DNA from: a phage
Length of the DNA stretch: 21,210 bases
Reading direction: 5' to 3' (one strand)
Assembly (NCBI GenBank): GCA_012690745.1
Contig: GCA_012690745.1_4086.5
Shown here one piece after another: positions 728 to 21,210 of the stretch (position 1 is the first letter of the stretch; each line of letters starts with the position of its first letter). The translations under genes were made by a program, and so were the position numbers. The notes under the pieces were generated by a model. The model was not told where the DNA came from, did no database searches, and was given only the letters and a program-made list of their open reading frames with translations.

Positions 728-1693
728 GTGAAAAAGCTTGATTTAAATACAATTGCCGAAGAAGTTCTGGATGAATGTTTTGCTAATGAAGAAGTCAACA
801 CACTAGAAGCCTTAGATTTCGTTGAAGATAAAGATGAAAATGAAGGTAAAGTACAAAGCAGTTTCAAATATAATATTACACTTAAGCGACCACCAAATGT
901 TTCCAATGAAGATCTAATTCGTGATATTCAAGCTGGTATCAATGTAAAGAAAAACACTGAACTGTTAGTTCGTTACAATTATGGACTTATTATTGATGTA
1001 GCAAGTAAATGTACTTGTTATATCCCATTTGAAGATAAGATTTCATATGGTGTTGAGGGGTTCATGAGAGCACTAAAAACCTTTGATCTTAATAAGAATG
1101 TTAAGTTCATTACCTATGCTTCTTCTAGTATTTACATGACAGTTTATAACGAAAGTTCTGACGCTAACTATATGGTACACTTCCCACGTTATATGAGTGT
1201 TCATAAGATCAAAGTAAAAAGATTCTGCCAGGAATATATGCGTAAACATGGTGTTCGCCCAACTCCTGAAATAATCTCAGAGGGTACTGGGATTGAGATT
1301 CAGCATGTTAATAACTGTTTGTTATTTCAAAGCGAATACACTTCTCTGGATGCACCATTAGACGGTGTTACCGATGGTACACTAGGTGACATTATTCATT
1401 CACCTGCTTCTGATTTTAACCTCAATGTTGATAGTATTCGTGCACCTTTACGTTATGCTATCAATGAACTGACTAACGAATTGAGTACTAAAGAACGTGA
1501 GATTATCCATCGTGTTCATGGTCTAGGTGAATATGAACCTGAAACGCTTCGTGAGATTGCTGATAATGGTTTTGTTGATGATAATGGAAAATATGTTAAA
1601 TCCCGTTCATCAATACATCGAAAGTACAGTGAAGCTATGCAAAAGCTTAAGAAGCTAGTACTTGCAAAAGGGTACGAATACGAAGATTTCTAA
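728..1693 (+). CDS. sigma-70 family RNA polymerase sigma factor
   Basis: GTG start 7 nt after AGGAG (716..720). Acidic N-terminus; region 2 (LVRYNYGLIIDVASK … YGVEGFMRALKTFD … FITYASS); region 3 (FPRYMSVHKIKVKRFCQEYMRKHGVRPTPEIISE, cf. sigma70 IPVHMIETINKL…GREPTPEELAE); region 4 HTH (LSTKEREIIHRVHGL … TLREIADNG … RSSIHRKYSEAMQKLKK). Confidence 0.85.
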   Translation: MKKLDLNTIAEEVLDECFANEEVNTLEALDFVEDKDENEGKVQSSFKYNITLKRPPNVSNEDLIRDIQAGINVKKNTELLVRYNYGLIIDVASKCTCYIPFEDKISYGVEGFMRALKTFDLNKNVKFITYASSSIYMTVYNESSDANYMVHFPRYMSVHKIKVKRFCQEYMRKHGVRPTPEIISEGTGIEIQHVNNCLLFQSEYTSLDAPLDGVTDGTLGDIIHSPASDFNLNVDSIRAPLRYAINELTNELSTKEREIIHRVHGLGEYEPETLREIADNGFVDDNGKYVKSRSSIHRKYSEAMQKLKKLVLAKGYEYEDF

Positions 1694-1700
1694 AGAAAAA

Positions 1701-1727
1701 AGGTTGGCTTATGCCAACCTTTTTTTA
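1701..1727 (+). terminator. intrinsic terminator (variant of the repeated hairpin module)
   Basis: aggttggc-ttat-gccaacct followed by a 6-T run, immediately after the sigma factor stop codon. Confidence 0.7.
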
Positions 1728-1747
1728 TGGGATGAAGTAAAAGTTTG

Positions 1748-1756
1748 TGATATAAT
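1748..1756 (+). promoter_or_regulatory. extended -10 promoter (TGaTATAAT)
   Basis: tgaTATAAT at 1748..1756 with no good -35; predicted start near 1763 would drive the ORF-free segment downstream. Confidence 0.45.
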
Positions 1757-1762
1757 TATCTT

Positions 1763-2250
1763 GTACAATTCTGTTGGCATGATATTCATGTACCTGATCC
1801 ACTCGAAAACGTAGAGGGCAGTTGAGCAGTCCGACAGTGCGAACAGCAAAAGAAACCCGTTAGATGTGGGCATAGTTTGAACCCCTCACGGCAATGCGGC
1901 TGTATAAAGAACCACGTTAGGATAGCTGGTGGTTCCTTGATAGACATATAAGGATAACACCTTACGAATTATCTAAGGGAGAGTTATCGAATTTTGTACA
2001 GGAAAGTTGCGTCCAAAATTTGAGTACTCACATTAAGTATTTGATTGCATAGATACTTAATGAAGATACACTATGTTTAAAAGTGTAGACCGTCATATGA
2101 AACTGAAGTAGAGAGAAACAGGATGACCCGCTTTCGCACTCGTTATGAGTAATCTTCAATGCAATAGCTCTGATACCATCAGCGTCAAATTTCCCTCCTT
2201 GTGGGGGGAAGAAAAATCCCTTCCTCAAATCCCGTCAATATTAAAAGTCC
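1763..2250 (+). ncRNA. candidate structured non-coding RNA (family unknown)
   Basis: No + strand ORF longer than about 11 codons. Visibly more GC-rich than flanks (1800..1960). Perfect inverted repeats at 1909..1935 (gaaccac/gtggttc), 2031..2062 (cattaagtat/atacttaatg), 2191..2210 (ttccctcc/ggggggaa). Bounded by promoters on both sides. Confidence 0.3.
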
Positions 2251-2279
2251 TTGACAGTTATTGATCATTCGCGTAGAAT
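2251..2279 (+). promoter_or_regulatory. sigma70-type promoter TTGACA-17-TAGAAT
   Basis: TTGACA 2251..2256, 17-nt spacer, TAGAAT 2274..2279; upstream of the 2344..3569 operon. Confidence 0.6.
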
Positions 2280-2343
2280 ACGTAGTATTAGAAGCGAACA
2301 GACATCTCGAAGAGATGGATGATTAACCATTAAGGAATATCCA

Positions 2344-2553
2344 ATGAATTCAGTAATCTTTTTAGTAGTCGCTTTCTCTGTTAATTCCGGTATACAAATA
2401 ACCCCAATGAATTCCATGAATCAATGCATAGCAGTACGTGATAGTACATACGAACAAGTAAACAAAGATATTTGGATTACAGTTAATAAAGAACAAATGT
2501 GGTGTTACAATAGTAATACTAACACAAAGCTTATTGTAGGACAAACTCAATGA
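2344..2553 (+). CDS. hypothetical small protein with hydrophobic N-terminus
   Basis: ATG start; stop overlaps next start (ATGA at 2550..2553). MNSVIFLVVAFSVNSG resembles a signal or membrane anchor. Confidence 0.55.
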   Translation: MNSVIFLVVAFSVNSGIQITPMNSMNQCIAVRDSTYEQVNKDIWITVNKEQMWCYNSNTNTKLIVGQTQ

Positions 2554-2780
2554 GTTATGGTGTTCGTTTTGAGATTCGTTCTATTGTCATCGATGCAGAG
2601 AAACAAGTATCGTTAGATGGTGATATACGTGAAATTTATCTATCATGTATCCGTGCGAAATCTGAAGCAGATGCCTTAGTACAAATGTATAGTTTTAACT
2701 TTTCAAATGGATTCTATTTGGTACGAGTTGTTGAAGTTAAAAAAGTAATTCTTGGTTGTTGCATAGAAGGAATAATGTAA
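2550..2780 (+). CDS. hypothetical protein
   Basis: Translationally coupled on both sides (ATGA upstream; TAA then ATG at 2781). Confidence 0.55.
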   Translation: MSYGVRFEIRSIVIDAEKQVSLDGDIREIYLSCIRAKSEADALVQMYSFNFSNGFYLVRVVEVKKVILGCCIEGIM

Positions 2781-3569
2781 ATGAGCACTATCGATGAACT
2801 GATTCAACGGAATTCAAAATATTACCAACCATCAGAAATTGTGGATAACATTACTAAATCTGAGTTTGGACCGAACACACGCAAACTCATTCATGTAATG
2901 TCACGTGATGGCTTTAAATGTGATTGTTGTGGTGAATCAAATGTAGTATTCACTTTACACAAGCACAGTACTAAAGAACGTTATAAATTCAGACCTTATG
3001 TACTTAAAGGGAAACGCCTTGTACGCATGACGTTAGACCATAATGTACTGGACTGTCTTCAGGGCGGTAATGATAAAGAGAACATGACTGCACTGTGTGA
3101 AGATTGTAACGCATTACGCCAGCATAAGTTTGCTGAATACAGTGAGTTTAAACACTGGTATCATAACGCGGATCGTTCAATCGAGCCTGACGTTAACTAC
3201 TGCTTCATTGAGTACATTAAGAATGCCAAAGATACATACATTCTTAAATCAATGTCACCTATTACCGTGTTTCCTGAGAACCTATTCACTACATTAAAGA
3301 ATAGTTTTATTGTAGGTGATATTGATGCATTCAAGTATTTTGACAAAGGTGCAAAACATTTTGAAATTCAATGTCTTAGTACTGCACTATGTGAACTCAT
3401 TAAAATTTACATAAAAGAGTATTTGGGTATTGACAATGTACGTGTACCAGAGTATACTTTTTCTATTGAATTCGATTGTGAATCAATCAAAGAGTTTGGA
3501 ATTCTTTTCAATAAACAAATAGAACTTGCAATTCAAAACGAAATCAAGTACTATACTACTAACATTTAA
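2781..3569 (+). CDS. HNH-family endonuclease
   Basis: CDCCGES … MTLDHNVLDCLQGGNDKENMTALCEDCNALRQHK: DH-N, GG, N, Cys pairs and terminal H-K in the order typical of the HNH nuclease motif; C-terminal ~150 aa unassigned. Confidence 0.8.
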   Translation: MSTIDELIQRNSKYYQPSEIVDNITKSEFGPNTRKLIHVMSRDGFKCDCCGESNVVFTLHKHSTKERYKFRPYVLKGKRLVRMTLDHNVLDCLQGGNDKENMTALCEDCNALRQHKFAEYSEFKHWYHNADRSIEPDVNYCFIEYIKNAKDTYILKSMSPITVFPENLFTTLKNSFIVGDIDAFKYFDKGAKHFEIQCLSTALCELIKIYIKEYLGIDNVRVPEYTFSIEFDCESIKEFGILFNKQIELAIQNEIKYYTTNI

Positions 3570-3584
3570 TCAGAGGAAATTATC

Positions 3585-3767
3585 ATGCAAATCATCATTC
3601 TTATCGTTGGTATCATGTTGGGTGTTTATGGTCACTCATGGATGAACGAGAAGTTTCCTAATACGCGTCCTGAATATTGCAGTACTAATGTATTCCAGAA
3701 TGGTGAGAAACCAAAGGAAAGCATTGGTAAAAAGTTGGACAAAGTACTTGATGTAATCAACGAATAA
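3585..3767 (+). CDS. hypothetical small protein with N-terminal TM segment
   Basis: GAGGA 7 nt upstream of ATG; MQIIILIVGIMLGVYG hydrophobic N-terminus. Confidence 0.5.
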   Translation: MQIIILIVGIMLGVYGHSWMNEKFPNTRPEYCSTNVFQNGEKPKESIGKKLDKVLDVINE

Positions 3768-3777
3768 GGGGAATAAA

Positions 3778-3978
3778 ATGTTTAAACCGAATTCCAATGT
3801 TGGTAAGAAAGTTCAATTACTTGAAGATGTATCCACCATGAGTGGAATTTTCCCAAGAGGTCACATCATGACTATTATTGCCGAAACATCCCGTGGGTGG
3901 GATTTGGAAGATGCTGATGGTAATCGCATCCTTGAGGCTGGATTCTATGGTCATCGTGAATATAAAATCATTGATTAA
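3778..3978 (+). CDS. hypothetical protein
   Basis: AAGGGG upstream of ATG; 66 aa. Confidence 0.55.
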   Translation: MFKPNSNVGKKVQLLEDVSTMSGIFPRGHIMTIIAETSRGWDLEDADGNRILEAGFYGHREYKIID

Positions 3979-3987
3979 GGATACAAC

Positions 3988-4071
3988 ATGACTTTAGAGA
4001 TTGTCTTTGGTATTGTTAGCTTAGTCGTCTGTGTGGGTTGGTTTGGGTATCTGATGATTTTTGGTGATTAA
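3988..4071 (+). CDS. candidate 27-aa hydrophobic peptide
   Basis: AAGGA 6 nt upstream of ATG 3988; MTLEIVFGIVSLVVCVGWFGYLMIFGD is a single predicted TM helix. Below the ORF-track size cutoff. Confidence 0.35.
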   Translation: MTLEIVFGIVSLVVCVGWFGYLMIFGD

Positions 4072-4074
4072 TAC

Positions 4075-4102
4075 TTGACATAAGATATCAGTACTGTATA
4101 AT
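4075..4102 (+). promoter_or_regulatory. sigma70-type promoter TTGACA-16-TATAAT
   Basis: TTGACA 4075..4080, spacer ending gtactg, TATAAT 4097..4102; same spacer-end motif as promoters at 8385 and 18736. Confidence 0.6.
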
Positions 4103-4147
4103 GTTTATATCAAACGAAATCCACTTTAACAAATGATAGGAAATATT

Positions 4148-4426
4148 ATGTCTTTTTCTAAAGAAGAACGTGACCTTATTAAAAAAGCAATTTGGTTTTA
4201 TGCTAATGAAGGGAAGTGCGATGAAGAAAAAGCACGTGAACTGTGTAATATTCTTGAGAAGAAACAAGAACTGAAAGTGTATCGTATCCGTGATTTGGAT
4301 GAAGGGGATCGTATTGTCCTAGCTGAAACAAAAGAAGAAGCAGAACAAATCTTCACTGATAAAAACGAAAATCCACATTGGATGGAAGAAGTCTGTGATG
4401 TTAAAAAAGGTACTTATATCGTTTGA
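4148..4426 (+). CDS. hypothetical protein
   Basis: Track ORF starts at ATG 4133 without an SD; in-frame ATG 4148 has AGGA 8 nt upstream, so it is preferred (MSFSKEERDL…). Confidence 0.6.
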   Translation: MSFSKEERDLIKKAIWFYANEGKCDEEKARELCNILEKKQELKVYRIRDLDEGDRIVLAETKEEAEQIFTDKNENPHWMEEVCDVKKGTYIV

Positions 4427-4451
4427 CAGTACTGAATAATAGCAGTATTAT
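4423..4451 (+). promoter_or_regulatory. sigma70-type promoter TTGACA-17-TATTAT
   Basis: TTGACA 4423..4428, 17-nt spacer, TATTAT 4446..4451; overlaps the stop of the preceding gene. Confidence 0.5.
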
Positions 4452-4460
4452 GTTTTATAT

Positions 4461-4524
4461 AAAAGGGAATGCAGTGAAAGGAAAGACAGCATAATCGTAC
4501 TCGTCACTGCGTTTCCACCCTTTT
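4461..4524 (+). promoter_or_regulatory. structured 5' leader, possible attenuator or stability hairpin
   Basis: Nested inverted repeats aaaaggg (4461..4467) / ccctttt (4518..4524) and gcagtga (4471..4477) / tcactgc (4504..4510) enclosing a 26-nt loop; lies between the promoter and the RBS of the 4546 gene and is followed by TTTT. Confidence 0.4.
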
Positions 4525-4545
4525 AAATTAAATGAGGAATTAACT

Positions 4546-4854
4546 ATGTTTCAAACTAACACTCAAGGTTTTGTAATCATCGATTTGAACCAAAACAGCG
4601 GTTATTGGATGAAACCTACTGACGCATGTATGCAGTTTGATTTTTTAGGTTACAGGATTAGTGTAAGTACTGGTGCTTCTGTACTGAGAGGTGGTTGTAT
4701 CGTTGAACATCTGGTAACTGATCCAGAAGGTCGTGAGTATGAAATCGCAGGTTCAGTACAAGATGCCATTATGTTTGTATGTCAGCGTGAAATGAATGGT
4801 TCGAATTCAAATGCACTGACTCATGCTCTTTCTCAAGAAGTGGAGGTTCGTTAA
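4546..4854 (+). CDS. hypothetical protein
   Basis: GAGGA 7 nt upstream; first gene of a long coupled operon (TAATG overlap with next gene). Confidence 0.65.
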   Translation: MFQTNTQGFVIIDLNQNSGYWMKPTDACMQFDFLGYRISVSTGASVLRGGCIVEHLVTDPEGREYEIAGSVQDAIMFVCQREMNGSNSNALTHALSQEVEVR

Positions 4855-5105
4855 TGAAATATATCGTAGCAGTACTCGTTGCATTTTTACTCACTGCATG
4901 TGACGCTTCAACAAAAGAACGCACAAGTGATTTTATTCTCCCTATTGAATTACAAGAAGCAGGATGTAAGATTTATCGTATGCAAAAGGACGGTGCTGGC
5001 GTAACCTTGTATACAGTTTATTGCCCTAATGCAAATACCAGTACTGGATACAGCAGCGGTAAAACACGAATCAATACTTCAGTGATTAATGGAGTACAAC
5101 AATGA
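4854..5105 (+). CDS. putative lipoprotein
   Basis: MKYIVAVLVAFLLTAC: signal peptide with lipobox-like LTAC; ATGA overlap with next gene. Confidence 0.65.
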   Translation: MKYIVAVLVAFLLTACDASTKERTSDFILPIELQEAGCKIYRMQKDGAGVTLYTVYCPNANTSTGYSSGKTRINTSVINGVQQ

Positions 5106-8168: not shown

Positions 8169-8401
8169 TACTAAGTTTTGTTGTTGCACTATTGTTTATG
8201 TTCTATCCTACACTAGTGGCATTAGCCACTAGACGAACGATGGTAGATCTCACTACTGTATTCTTGCTAAACGTGGCATTAGTACTGGTGTCTATTATCA
8301 TTCCAGTGAGCTTTACAGTTATTGATATTATTTCGGTATTACTCTTCGTGTTAAGTTATCTTATGCTTATTGAAGAAACAAATGTTGACAAACGTTCGTA
8401 G
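8159..8401 (+). CDS. small integral membrane protein
   Basis: AAGGTG upstream of ATG; almost entirely hydrophobic (two predicted TM helices). Confidence 0.6.
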   Translation: MYLVLSFVVALLFMFYPTLVALATRRTMVDLTTVFLLNVALVLVSIIIPVSFTVIDIISVLLFVLSYLMLIEETNVDKRS

Positions 8402-8412
8402 TACTGTATAAT
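8385..8412 (+). promoter_or_regulatory. sigma70-type promoter TTGACA-16-TATAAT
   Basis: TTGACA 8385..8390, spacer ending gtactg, TATAAT 8407..8412; overlaps the 3' end of the preceding gene. Confidence 0.6.
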
Positions 8413-8458
8413 GGTTCCTGTAGTCTGAAACTTAACACTTAAACTTGAGGTAAAAAAT

Positions 8459-18735: not shown

Positions 18736-18763
18736 TTGACAAACACATTCTGTACTGTATAAT
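18736..18763 (+). promoter_or_regulatory. sigma70-type promoter TTGACA-16-TATAAT
   Basis: TTGACA 18736..18741, spacer ending gtactg, TATAAT 18758..18763; followed by a 7-bp leader hairpin gggatga/tcatccc at 18776..18794. Confidence 0.6.
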
Positions 18764-18812
18764 GCTTATCAAGGGGGGATGAACTTCTCATCCCTACAAT
18801 CGAGGAACTACC

Positions 18813-20914: not shown

Positions 20915-21210
20915 ATGCCAGCTAAAAAAACAACTGAACAATTCATTAAAGACGCAAAAGAAAAAAGAACTGACATTGATTTTGATTATAGTAAAGTTAA
21001 TTATATTAATTCTTTTACAAAAGTAACTATTATTGATCCTGAATTTGGTGAGTTTGATATTACACCCAATCACTTTTTAAGTGGTAGTGGGCATCCTATC
21101 CGTGGTGGTTCATCTAAAAAAACAACAGAACAATTTATTAAAGAAGCAAAAGAAAAGAGATCTGACATTGATTTTGATTATAGCAAAGTTAATTATATTA
21201 ATACTAAAAC
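20915..21210 (+). CDS. hypothetical protein with tandemly repeated ~30-aa module (partial, continues past window)
   Basis: GGAG upstream of ATG 20915; KKTTEQFIKDAKEKRTDIDFDYSKVNYIN recurs as KKTTEQFIKEAKEKRSDIDFDYSKVNYIN 64 codons later; open at window end. Confidence 0.6.
   Translation, partial: MPAKKTTEQFIKDAKEKRTDIDFDYSKVNYINSFTKVTIIDPEFGEFDITPNHFLSGSGHPIRGGSSKKTTEQFIKEAKEKRSDIDFDYSKVNYINTK
20921..21202 (+). repeat. direct repeat, two ~90-bp copies (20921..21010 and 21113..21202) within the partial ORF
   Basis: The two copies are about 90% identical at DNA level, period 192 bp, in frame. Confidence 0.8.

Follow-up and report, generated by a model that had tools for sequence, protein, structure and literature searches.

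Downstream of a sigma-factor gene in a phage genome, an HNH endonuclease gene stands third in a tight row behind two small open reading frames (ORFs), and this arrangement raises the question of whether the three proteins work together or whether the nuclease gene is a homing element that has captured its upstream neighbors. The window, i.e., the whole 21,210-nucleotide stretch of DNA that was analyzed, shares 96-98% identity with Asteriusvirus jumbo coliphages such as JP4, phAPEC6, 121Q, and PBECO4 across 97-98% of its length, and by this measure its source is an Asteriusvirus (121Q/PBECO4-like) jumbo coliphage. The locus is the counterpart of 121Q genes 168-170, located 3' of the phage sigma-factor gene, and we found no literature specific to it. 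The layout given in the initial annotation was reproduced at the sequence level: ORF1 (2344..2553, 69 aa), ORF2 (2550..2780, 76 aa, without an assigned function), and the HNH gene (2781..3569, 262 aa) follow each other on the + strand, the ATG of ORF2 overlaps the TGA of ORF1 (ATGA), the TAA of ORF2 abuts the ATG of the HNH gene, and a promoter-like site precedes them all. That site (2251..2279, + strand; TTGACA-17-TAGAAT) matches the sigma-70 consensus at 11 of 12 positions and is the presumed driver of the three genes. The stretch around it is 97-100% identical in nearly all compared Asteriusviruses, with 91-93% in JNE01 and Turkey5 and 94% in ph0011. Each of the three ORFs has its own AGGA/AAGGA Shine-Dalgarno sequence 8-11 nt 5' of the start. 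About 30 related phages carry intact copies of all three, and on this ground and by their dN/dS values (see below) we regard them as real genes. A hydrophobic N terminus had been described for one of the two small ORFs; it belongs to ORF1 (MNSVIFLVVAFSV), the product of which also contains two cysteines and matches phrog_37707. The longer ORF1 start used here is backed by conservation of the hydrophobic N-terminal amino acids in diverged relatives, and several records give too short a version of the gene (121Q gp168).

In the HNH protein, an N-terminal zinc-type HNH (H-N-N) domain is followed by about 90-135 aa of C-terminal region. When 6 and 14 family members with identities down to 21% were aligned, C47, C50, D86-H87, N101, C106, C109, and N110 proved to be invariant. 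These residues include the two CxxC pairs (C47/C50 and C106/C109) that make up the zinc site of the zinc-finger subclass, as well as the D-H dipeptide with the predicted catalytic His, the structural Asn, and the final Asn that together constitute the motif of the HNH (beta-beta-alpha-Me) superfamily; as H115 is not conserved, the domain is classed as an H-N-N variant. Fourteen PHROG "HNH endonuclease" families matched the protein, with E values from 1.8e-188 to 5e-3. In Pfam, the protein itself scored below the gathering cut-offs (HNH, 15.7 bits against 21.4; HNH_5, 15.1 bits against 27.5), and a weak match to the IscB HNH region reached 19.7 bits against a cut-off of 175. Searching with a family profile retrieved 1811 proteins at E <= 1e-3, about 30 of them full length and the others short; the short ones were matched at E values of 1e-10 to 1e-17, and eight of the ten tested passed the Pfam HNH or HNH_5 cut-off. 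With a dN/dS of 0.05-0.07, the N-terminal domain is under strong purifying selection, and its catalytic core appears both intact and constrained. Pfam, NCBIfam, and PADLOC runs on ORF1, ORF2, the HNH protein, and ORF4 (see below) gave no significant match, and tblastn of the phage collection found HNH homologues only among jumbo-phage relatives.

The protein shares the CxxC...DH...N...CxxCN arrangement with McrA/HNH_5 zinc-finger nucleases such as the Gme HNH nicking endonuclease (PDB 4h9d), and this entry was the top PDB match by sequence and by fold, at non-significant E values (0.48 and 1.9); those nucleases lack the long C-terminal region. PDB sequence searches, whether started from the single protein or from a 14-sequence profile, yielded no other match, and fold searches with the AlphaFold2 model gave none that was significant. 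The model built from 4 sequences was unusable (pLDDT 49), whereas that built from 14 sequences (pLDDT 67) had a good N-terminal domain, disordered residues 118-159, and a moderate C-terminal region (pLDDT 54-75), so that it is to be read with confidence for the N-terminal domain only. The C-terminal extension had been listed as lacking an assignment, and this still holds, with no significant match by sequence or fold.

If the gene belongs to a homing-type, mobile, or dispensable endonuclease, as the initial annotation suggested, presence/absence polymorphism is to be expected among related phages, and such polymorphism was indeed found. Among about 36 isolates, the HNH gene is full length in 31 records, absent from four, and without its nuclease domain in one. 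In EC22.5-2, ECO103 4-12-1, JNE01, and Turkey5, approximately 86-95 bp stand in place of a segment of about 1 kb (2523..3560, + strand), which covers the final 10 ORF1 codons as well as ORF2 and the HNH gene. In these cassette-less relatives, ORF1 is followed directly by ORF4 (3585..3767, + strand), a conserved gene for a 60-aa protein whose N-terminal hydrophobic stretch is a probable transmembrane helix. The distance from the ORF1 stop to the ORF4 start is about 78-83 bp in EC22.5-2, JNE01, and Turkey5 versus 1031 bp in the window. ORF4 was found in every relative, always immediately 3' of the variable slot (dN/dS 0.03-0.14), and forms its right-hand boundary. ORF1 (dN/dS 0.07-0.37) is present in cassette-less EC22.5-2, JNE01, and Turkey5 and also in the metagenome contig L006; by this distribution it is a resident conserved gene that lies outside the variable cassette. 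ORF2 and the HNH gene, as far as these genome comparisons indicate, constitute a dispensable cassette, and the variable slot that it occupies is bounded by the conserved small early genes ORF1 and ORF4.

Farther afield, the nuclease gene was found in other surroundings. In L006, whose HNH protein is 59% identical, an ORF1 homologue is followed by three unrelated ORFs, the HNH gene, and an ORF4 homologue, and ORF2 was not detectable beside the HNH gene; two of the ORFs in that contig, of 70 and 67 aa, were considered as ORF2 paralogues and ruled out (hhalign probability of 0.3%). Jumbo phages of Yersinia, Pectobacterium, and Salmonella carry full-length relatives (23-26% identical in the alignment) at other loci. 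Family members in other genera occupy differing loci, with two copies per genome, and neither ORF1 nor ORF2 was found alongside the HNH relatives in other jumbo-phage genera. The ORFs located 5' of these relatives in Yersinia phage fHe-Yen9-03 and Salmonella phage Munch were likewise rejected as ORF2 paralogues. Thus, the polymorphism, the conserved flanking genes, and the homologues at other loci bear out the proposal of a mobile or dispensable endonuclease gene at the level of sequence.

A comparison of EC22.5-2 with the window revealed how the slot is embedded. The two genomes are about 100% identical over positions 500-2350 and 3860-4400, but only about 80% identical at 2350-2522 and 82-95% at 3561-3860; the indel is accordingly flanked by diverged tracts of about 170 and 300 bp lying inside almost identical sequence. 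These tracts have the appearance of a recombination patch centered on the cassette. Similar patches occur elsewhere in the region (e.g., at 4850-5100), which means that recombination near the cassette is not unique to it. Furthermore, the ORF1 alleles of the cassette-less phages are deeply diverged (dS of about 2), so that the polarity of the exchange in EC22.5-2 cannot be read. The flanks of the HNH gene are in general much more diverged than its core, ORF1 and ORF2 being far more diverged than the nuclease core. The nuclease-domain segment (2793..3320, + strand, codons ~5-180) shows 91-100% nucleotide identity among all HNH-positive isolates (dS 0.17-0.39).

It is this segment that is missing from the one isolate without a nuclease domain. 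Phage A4 contains ORF1, ORF2, and then an 87-aa ORF in which an initial MSTI leads into the C-terminal region of the HNH protein, the intervening codons being absent through an in-frame deletion between the repeats ACTATCGATGA and GATATTGATGC. The contig L022 matches A4 at 96.6% identity on the upstream side and at 99.2% on the downstream side, encodes the same C-terminal amino acids, and carries 524-525 bp that A4 lacks, with the junction in a 7-11 nt repeat (microhomology). Since L022 combines such similar flanks with a full gene, we concluded that A4 represents a recent in-frame deletion of the nuclease domain. The reverse order of events, in which A4 would be ancestral and the HNH domain inserted into a pre-existing gene for the C-terminal region, was rejected in favor of a deletion because of the L022 flanks, its full gene, and the microhomology, and it is also opposed by the fused architecture in distant relatives (L006 and other genera). 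The C-terminal region itself (3321..3569, + strand), which is a stand-alone ORF in A4, is predicted to be helical and has no assigned function. It is homologous throughout the family and exists as two old alleles with about 60% nucleotide identity (dS > 1.1, dN/dS 0.33-0.40). Presumably, it is the DNA-binding part of the HNH protein.

The signals for transcription helped to explain where these deletions end. As had been proposed, the HNH gene seems to have no promoter of its own: to judge from sequence patterns, there is no strong promoter-like site within 2280-2781, and none between the site at 2251-2279 and the HNH start exceeds a 9/12 match. A second consensus-like site (TTGACA-17-TATACT; 3430..3458, + strand) lies within the coding sequence of the C-terminal region and is presumed to serve ORF4 and the following ORF5. 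This site, in the form TTGACA-17-TATA(C/A)T, is kept in all 14 alleles compared, including the approximately 60%-identical type II allele of the C-terminal region, L006, and the short ORF1-ORF4 spacer of cassette-less phages, where it comes directly after the ORF1 stop. Both the whole-cassette deletion and that in A4 retain it. The need to spare an embedded promoter-like site for ORF4 would account for the deletion endpoints and for the fact that A4 keeps the region encoding the C-terminal part. Since the "empty" sites still contain this cassette-internal element, they resemble deletion remnants rather than naive target sites. No terminator-like site was found in 1600-4700, and in the absence of one 3' of the HNH gene, transcripts starting at 2251 probably run on into ORF4 and ORF5. 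The term three-gene operon is thus appropriate as a description of the ORFs but not of a demonstrated transcription unit, as there is no terminator-like site and a second promoter-like site is located at 3430-3458. Some T4 endonuclease genes have a hairpin that sequesters the ribosome-binding site. No such hairpin was found at the start of the HNH gene (z = +1.2); a hairpin across the Shine-Dalgarno sequence and AUG of ORF2 had a borderline score (z = -1.97).

Do the three proteins nevertheless act together? A module of this kind, with ORF2 (and perhaps also ORF1) as an accessory, regulator, or immunity partner of the nuclease, could be read from the ORF1/ORF2 and ORF2/HNH junctions, which are tight and conserved in all cassette-bearing phages examined. 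However, tight junctions are the norm in this phage genome: about 20 of the approximately 47 same-strand junctions in the window, counted from the ORF list, overlap or are at most 3 nt apart, and the ATGA and TAA-ATG junctions are therefore nothing special. ORF1 is found in relatives lacking the other two, the HNH gene is unaccompanied by a detectable ORF2 both in L006, where it stands behind unrelated genes, and in other genera, and the similarity among ORF2 sequences is independent of which of the two C-terminal alleles follows. Hence, the strict co-occurrence and co-variation of partners that mark a nuclease operating with an immunity or accessory protein were not observed, and the claim that the three proteins work together was not supported. 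The very pattern named beforehand as speaking against it, an HNH gene alone at varying loci with the small ORFs unlinked, is largely what the relatives display. The three genes are not one evolutionary unit, ORF1 being separable and ORF2 and HNH missing jointly. The notion of captured upstream passengers accordingly survives for ORF2, which is gained or lost with the HNH gene in the whole-cassette indel, but not for ORF1, which is resident in every cassette-less relative.

ORF2 deserves separate consideration. Its homologues are confined to Asteriusvirus-like genomes, each located 5' of a gene for the fused HNH protein or for the C-terminal region by itself, and no ORF2 homologue was found without a gene for the C-terminal region. 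In addition, A4 retains ORF2 and the C-terminal region despite the loss of the nuclease domain, and in four Salmonella SD phages the ORF2 and HNH reading frames are joined in an in-frame fusion. The 28-nt deletion behind this fusion was aligned in SD-2_S15 only; deletions abound in the SD assemblies, and the fusion may therefore be artefactual. ORF2 is, moreover, weakly constrained (dN/dS 0.31-0.46). Taken together, a complex of the three proteins is not supported for ORF1 and weakly supported for ORF2, and we consider a module of nuclease and partners unlikely. The exclusive company that ORF2 keeps with the C-terminal region, the preservation of both in A4, and the fusion in the SD phages leave some room for a different pairing, in which these two would be functional independently of cleavage and the nuclease domain would be a removable add-on. 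For instance, the ORF2 product could bind the C-terminal region as a small inhibitor or specificity partner, or the latter region could be a DNA-binding regulator of the embedded promoter. We regard this pairing, too, as improbable; if it were true, the locus would encode a nuclease-with-partner system in jumbo phages and not a plain selfish endonuclease.

The anatomy of the cassette is best matched by the mob and seg genes of phage T4, which are promoter-less cassettes in polycistronic messages, with promoters of downstream genes embedded in the endonuclease ORF, as in segG/gene 32 (PMC2988022). The start of mobE overlaps the stop of nrdA, and the Mob proteins contain an HNH domain and a distinct C-terminal region (PMC2988022). 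The cassette described here likewise (i) lies between genes conserved among relatives, which are adjacent in phages lacking it, and is sporadic among close relatives, (ii) encodes an N-terminal HNH domain followed by a distinct C-terminal region, and (iii) to judge from sequence patterns, depends on an upstream message, starts at the upstream stop, and contains a promoter-like site for the downstream gene, the absence of an own promoter and the embedded downstream promoter being common but not obligatory in mob/seg genes. There are also differences: beyond the HNH motif, no sequence relationship to the T4 proteins was detectable, the cassette resides in a Rak2-like jumbo phage and travels with the small upstream ORF2, and the activity of MobE has been demonstrated, whereas that of the present protein is predicted. 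A second parallel comes from ICP1 and other phages, in which nuclease genes are found at boundaries of genetic exchange and the domains of homing endonuclease genes (HEGs) are shuffled (PMC10448857). In both cases, nuclease genes lie at breakpoints of mosaic exchange and their domains have differing histories (here, dS of 0.2-0.4 for the HNH core versus > 1.1 for the C-terminal region), but the HNH subfamilies differ, and a single small cassette contrasts with a "HEG island" of more than 10 kb.

Because every anatomical trait has a published T4 counterpart, we propose, with a probability of roughly 60%, that ORF2 and the HNH gene constitute a Mob-like, dispensable, and probably homing endonuclease cassette. 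From the features described above, we infer that the protein is a site-specific nuclease, that the cassette homes, that both promoters are used, and that translation is coupled. According to this proposal, the promoter at 2251 would give rise to one message for ORF1 and the HNH gene, and, given this shared message and the position of the HNH start against the ORF2 stop, translation of the nuclease would stay low and dependent on upstream translation. Most likely, the enzyme would cleave the DNA of relatives without the cassette close to the slot during mixed infection, and repair with the cassette-bearing genome as template would copy the cassette along with flanking markers. Cassettes would later be lost through deletions obliged to spare the embedded promoter.

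The presence of the gene in 31 of about 36 isolates and the long-term purifying selection on its core fit a useful, vertically inherited gene as well. The protein might be a domesticated or accessory nuclease with a job of its own, e.g., in DNA processing or in the early breakdown of host or competitor DNA, inherited mainly vertically with occasional loss; the mosaicism would then be the general recombinational background of a hyperplastic early region. In agreement with this, the nuclease domain is as constrained as described above, the large majority of isolates carry it, its full-length architecture is conserved across Rak2-like genera in about 30 representatives, a consensus host-type early promoter precedes the gene, the empty sites have the look of deletions, and further mosaic patches lie nearby. 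On the other hand, at least two independent losses (of the whole cassette and of the nuclease domain alone) left the phages viable, the locus varies between genera, no defense or anti-defense model was matched, and the anatomy corresponds point for point to that of the selfish T4 mob/seg cassettes. We hold an accessory role, the foremost alternative to a homing cassette, to be possible but doubtful.

A more specific job, namely assisting the terminase as a packaging-associated HNH protein, appears very improbable to us. It has been assumed for the HNH genes of related Eneladusvirus phages (PMC7760394), and this statement together with the generic HNH_5/McrA-like zinc-finger motif type makes up the whole case for it. 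The annotated features under the 21-kb window match include neither a terminase nor a portal gene, the HNH gene has the sigma-factor gene and small early ORFs as neighbors, and five viable relatives lack the gene or its nuclease domain, so that neither terminase/portal adjacency nor a requirement for packaging, the marks of a terminase-associated HNH protein, applies here. Packaging HNH proteins are typically of about 100-130 aa (HK97 gp74 class). With 262 aa and a long C-terminal region, the present protein is larger.

Directly 5' of the cassette locus, we observed a feature of a different kind. The stretch at ~1764-2250 is noncoding, and positions ~1870-2320 are mostly 90-100% identical across Asteriusviruses, with the exception of ph0011 (61-82% up to ~2270); this conservation persists where the adjoining sigma gene is only 62-69% identical. 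Jumbo phages of Erwinia, Serratia, Pectobacterium, Cronobacter, Yersinia, Salmonella, and Xanthomonas contain the region at about 70% identity, in unannotated gaps of 600-680 bp. A 32-nt core is present in up to four copies per genome, always on one strand within any genome. Evaluated on 20 sequences, a 53-pair consensus structure was paired to 98.2% compared with 42-47% when the partners were slid, and 163 double-sided compensatory cells were counted versus at most 19 after sliding. The U-G wobble pairs, internal terminator-like hairpins in some copies, and an upstream TGnTATAAT element at 1748-1756 point to the + strand. No match was found in Rfam 15, and no tRNA or tmRNA was detected. The region looks like an undescribed multi-copy family of large structured RNAs of about 460 nt, and it is likely of more consequence than the cassette.

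As for the cassette, these findings suggest that the HNH gene is, by analogy, an ordinary free-standing endonuclease gene of the kind known from phage T4, not part of a three-protein machine, and in annotations the label "three-gene operon" should not be taken to imply a functional complex. Free-standing endonuclease cassettes in the style of T4 mob/seg would thereby be known from Rak2-like jumbo phages as well, a result of modest significance. The Asteriusviruses also provide a natural allele set for a test of homing, comprising the full cassette, the cassette with its nuclease domain deleted, and the deletion of the whole cassette.

The product of ORF1, the resident gene at 2344-2553, is annotated as 45 amino acids (138 nt) in the records of phages 121Q and PBECO4, and the UE-S1 record carries a likewise shortened call of 147 nt. 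For window positions 2344-2553, which were set against the annotated records L001 and L007, comparison with diverged relatives supports a longer form of 69 amino acids; its N-terminus is hydrophobic and conserved, and its Shine-Dalgarno sequence is good. The end of ORF1 lies in a predicted hairpin (2505-2595), in which it pairs with the ORF2 Shine-Dalgarno sequence and AUG start codon. The calculated folding energy was -19.8 kcal/mol, with a borderline z-score of -1.97 (9 of 200 shuffled sequences were equally stable), and such a structure would make the translation of ORF2 dependent on ribosomes completing ORF1.

In Salmonella phage SD-2_S15 (record L013), ORF2 is joined in frame to the endonuclease gene, giving a 330-amino-acid ORF (2052-3044 of that record). 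The junction results from the loss of 28 nt within an A-rich run, which connects ORF2 residues 1-66 to the HNH protein. The same truncated match to ORF2 was found in SD-15_S21, SD-6_S16, and SD-1_S14, with the deletion itself aligned in SD-2_S15 only. The fusion may be real or an artefact of the SD assemblies, which are rich in deletions. On the other side of the HNH gene, a diverged tract (3561-3860) covers ORF4 together with the first part of ORF5. ORF4 differs from its 121Q counterpart by 10 synonymous and 0 non-synonymous substitutions; the adjoining HNH gene is nearly identical to the 121Q copy. A sharp recombination breakpoint lies directly 3′ of the HNH stop codon. Two direct repeats of 95 nt each (20919-21013 and 21111-21205; 92% identity, spacing 192 nt) lie at the right end of the window and are probably a duplicated coding segment.

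Three perfect early promoters were predicted (4075-4108, 8385-8418, and 18736-18769), which belong to one family with the extended motif TTGACA-N(10)-GTACTGTATAAT, and their GTAC element 5′ of the -10 box is also found in the promoter-like site embedded in the HNH coding region (3430-3458). Moreover, a cassette of about 50 nt occurs in eight copies (at 1694, 10147, 13389, 13572, 14915, 16000, 20289, and 20833). It consists of a G+C-rich hairpin with TTGAC in its stem, followed by a T-run and a -10-like box, the latter being a good TATAAT in several of the copies. The cassette looks like a terminator combined with an early promoter, and it resembles the PeSL (promoter-early stem-loop) elements of T4-type phages.

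Upstream of ORF1 lies a noncoding element of about 460 nt (1764-2250), present in up to four copies per genome in Rak2-like jumbo phages from at least six host genera. Its paralogues and orthologues (compared records L018-L021 and L024-L044) share long invariant blocks, and covariation is strong. The 53 pairs of the consensus structure were 98.2% paired, compared with 42-47% when the partners were displaced as a control, and compensatory cells numbered 163 versus at most 19. Wobble pairs, internal terminator-like hairpins, and a TGnTATAAT box upstream (1748-1756) indicate the plus strand. Searches of Rfam and for tRNA and tmRNA gave no match, and the element probably represents a family of large structured RNAs that has not been described before.
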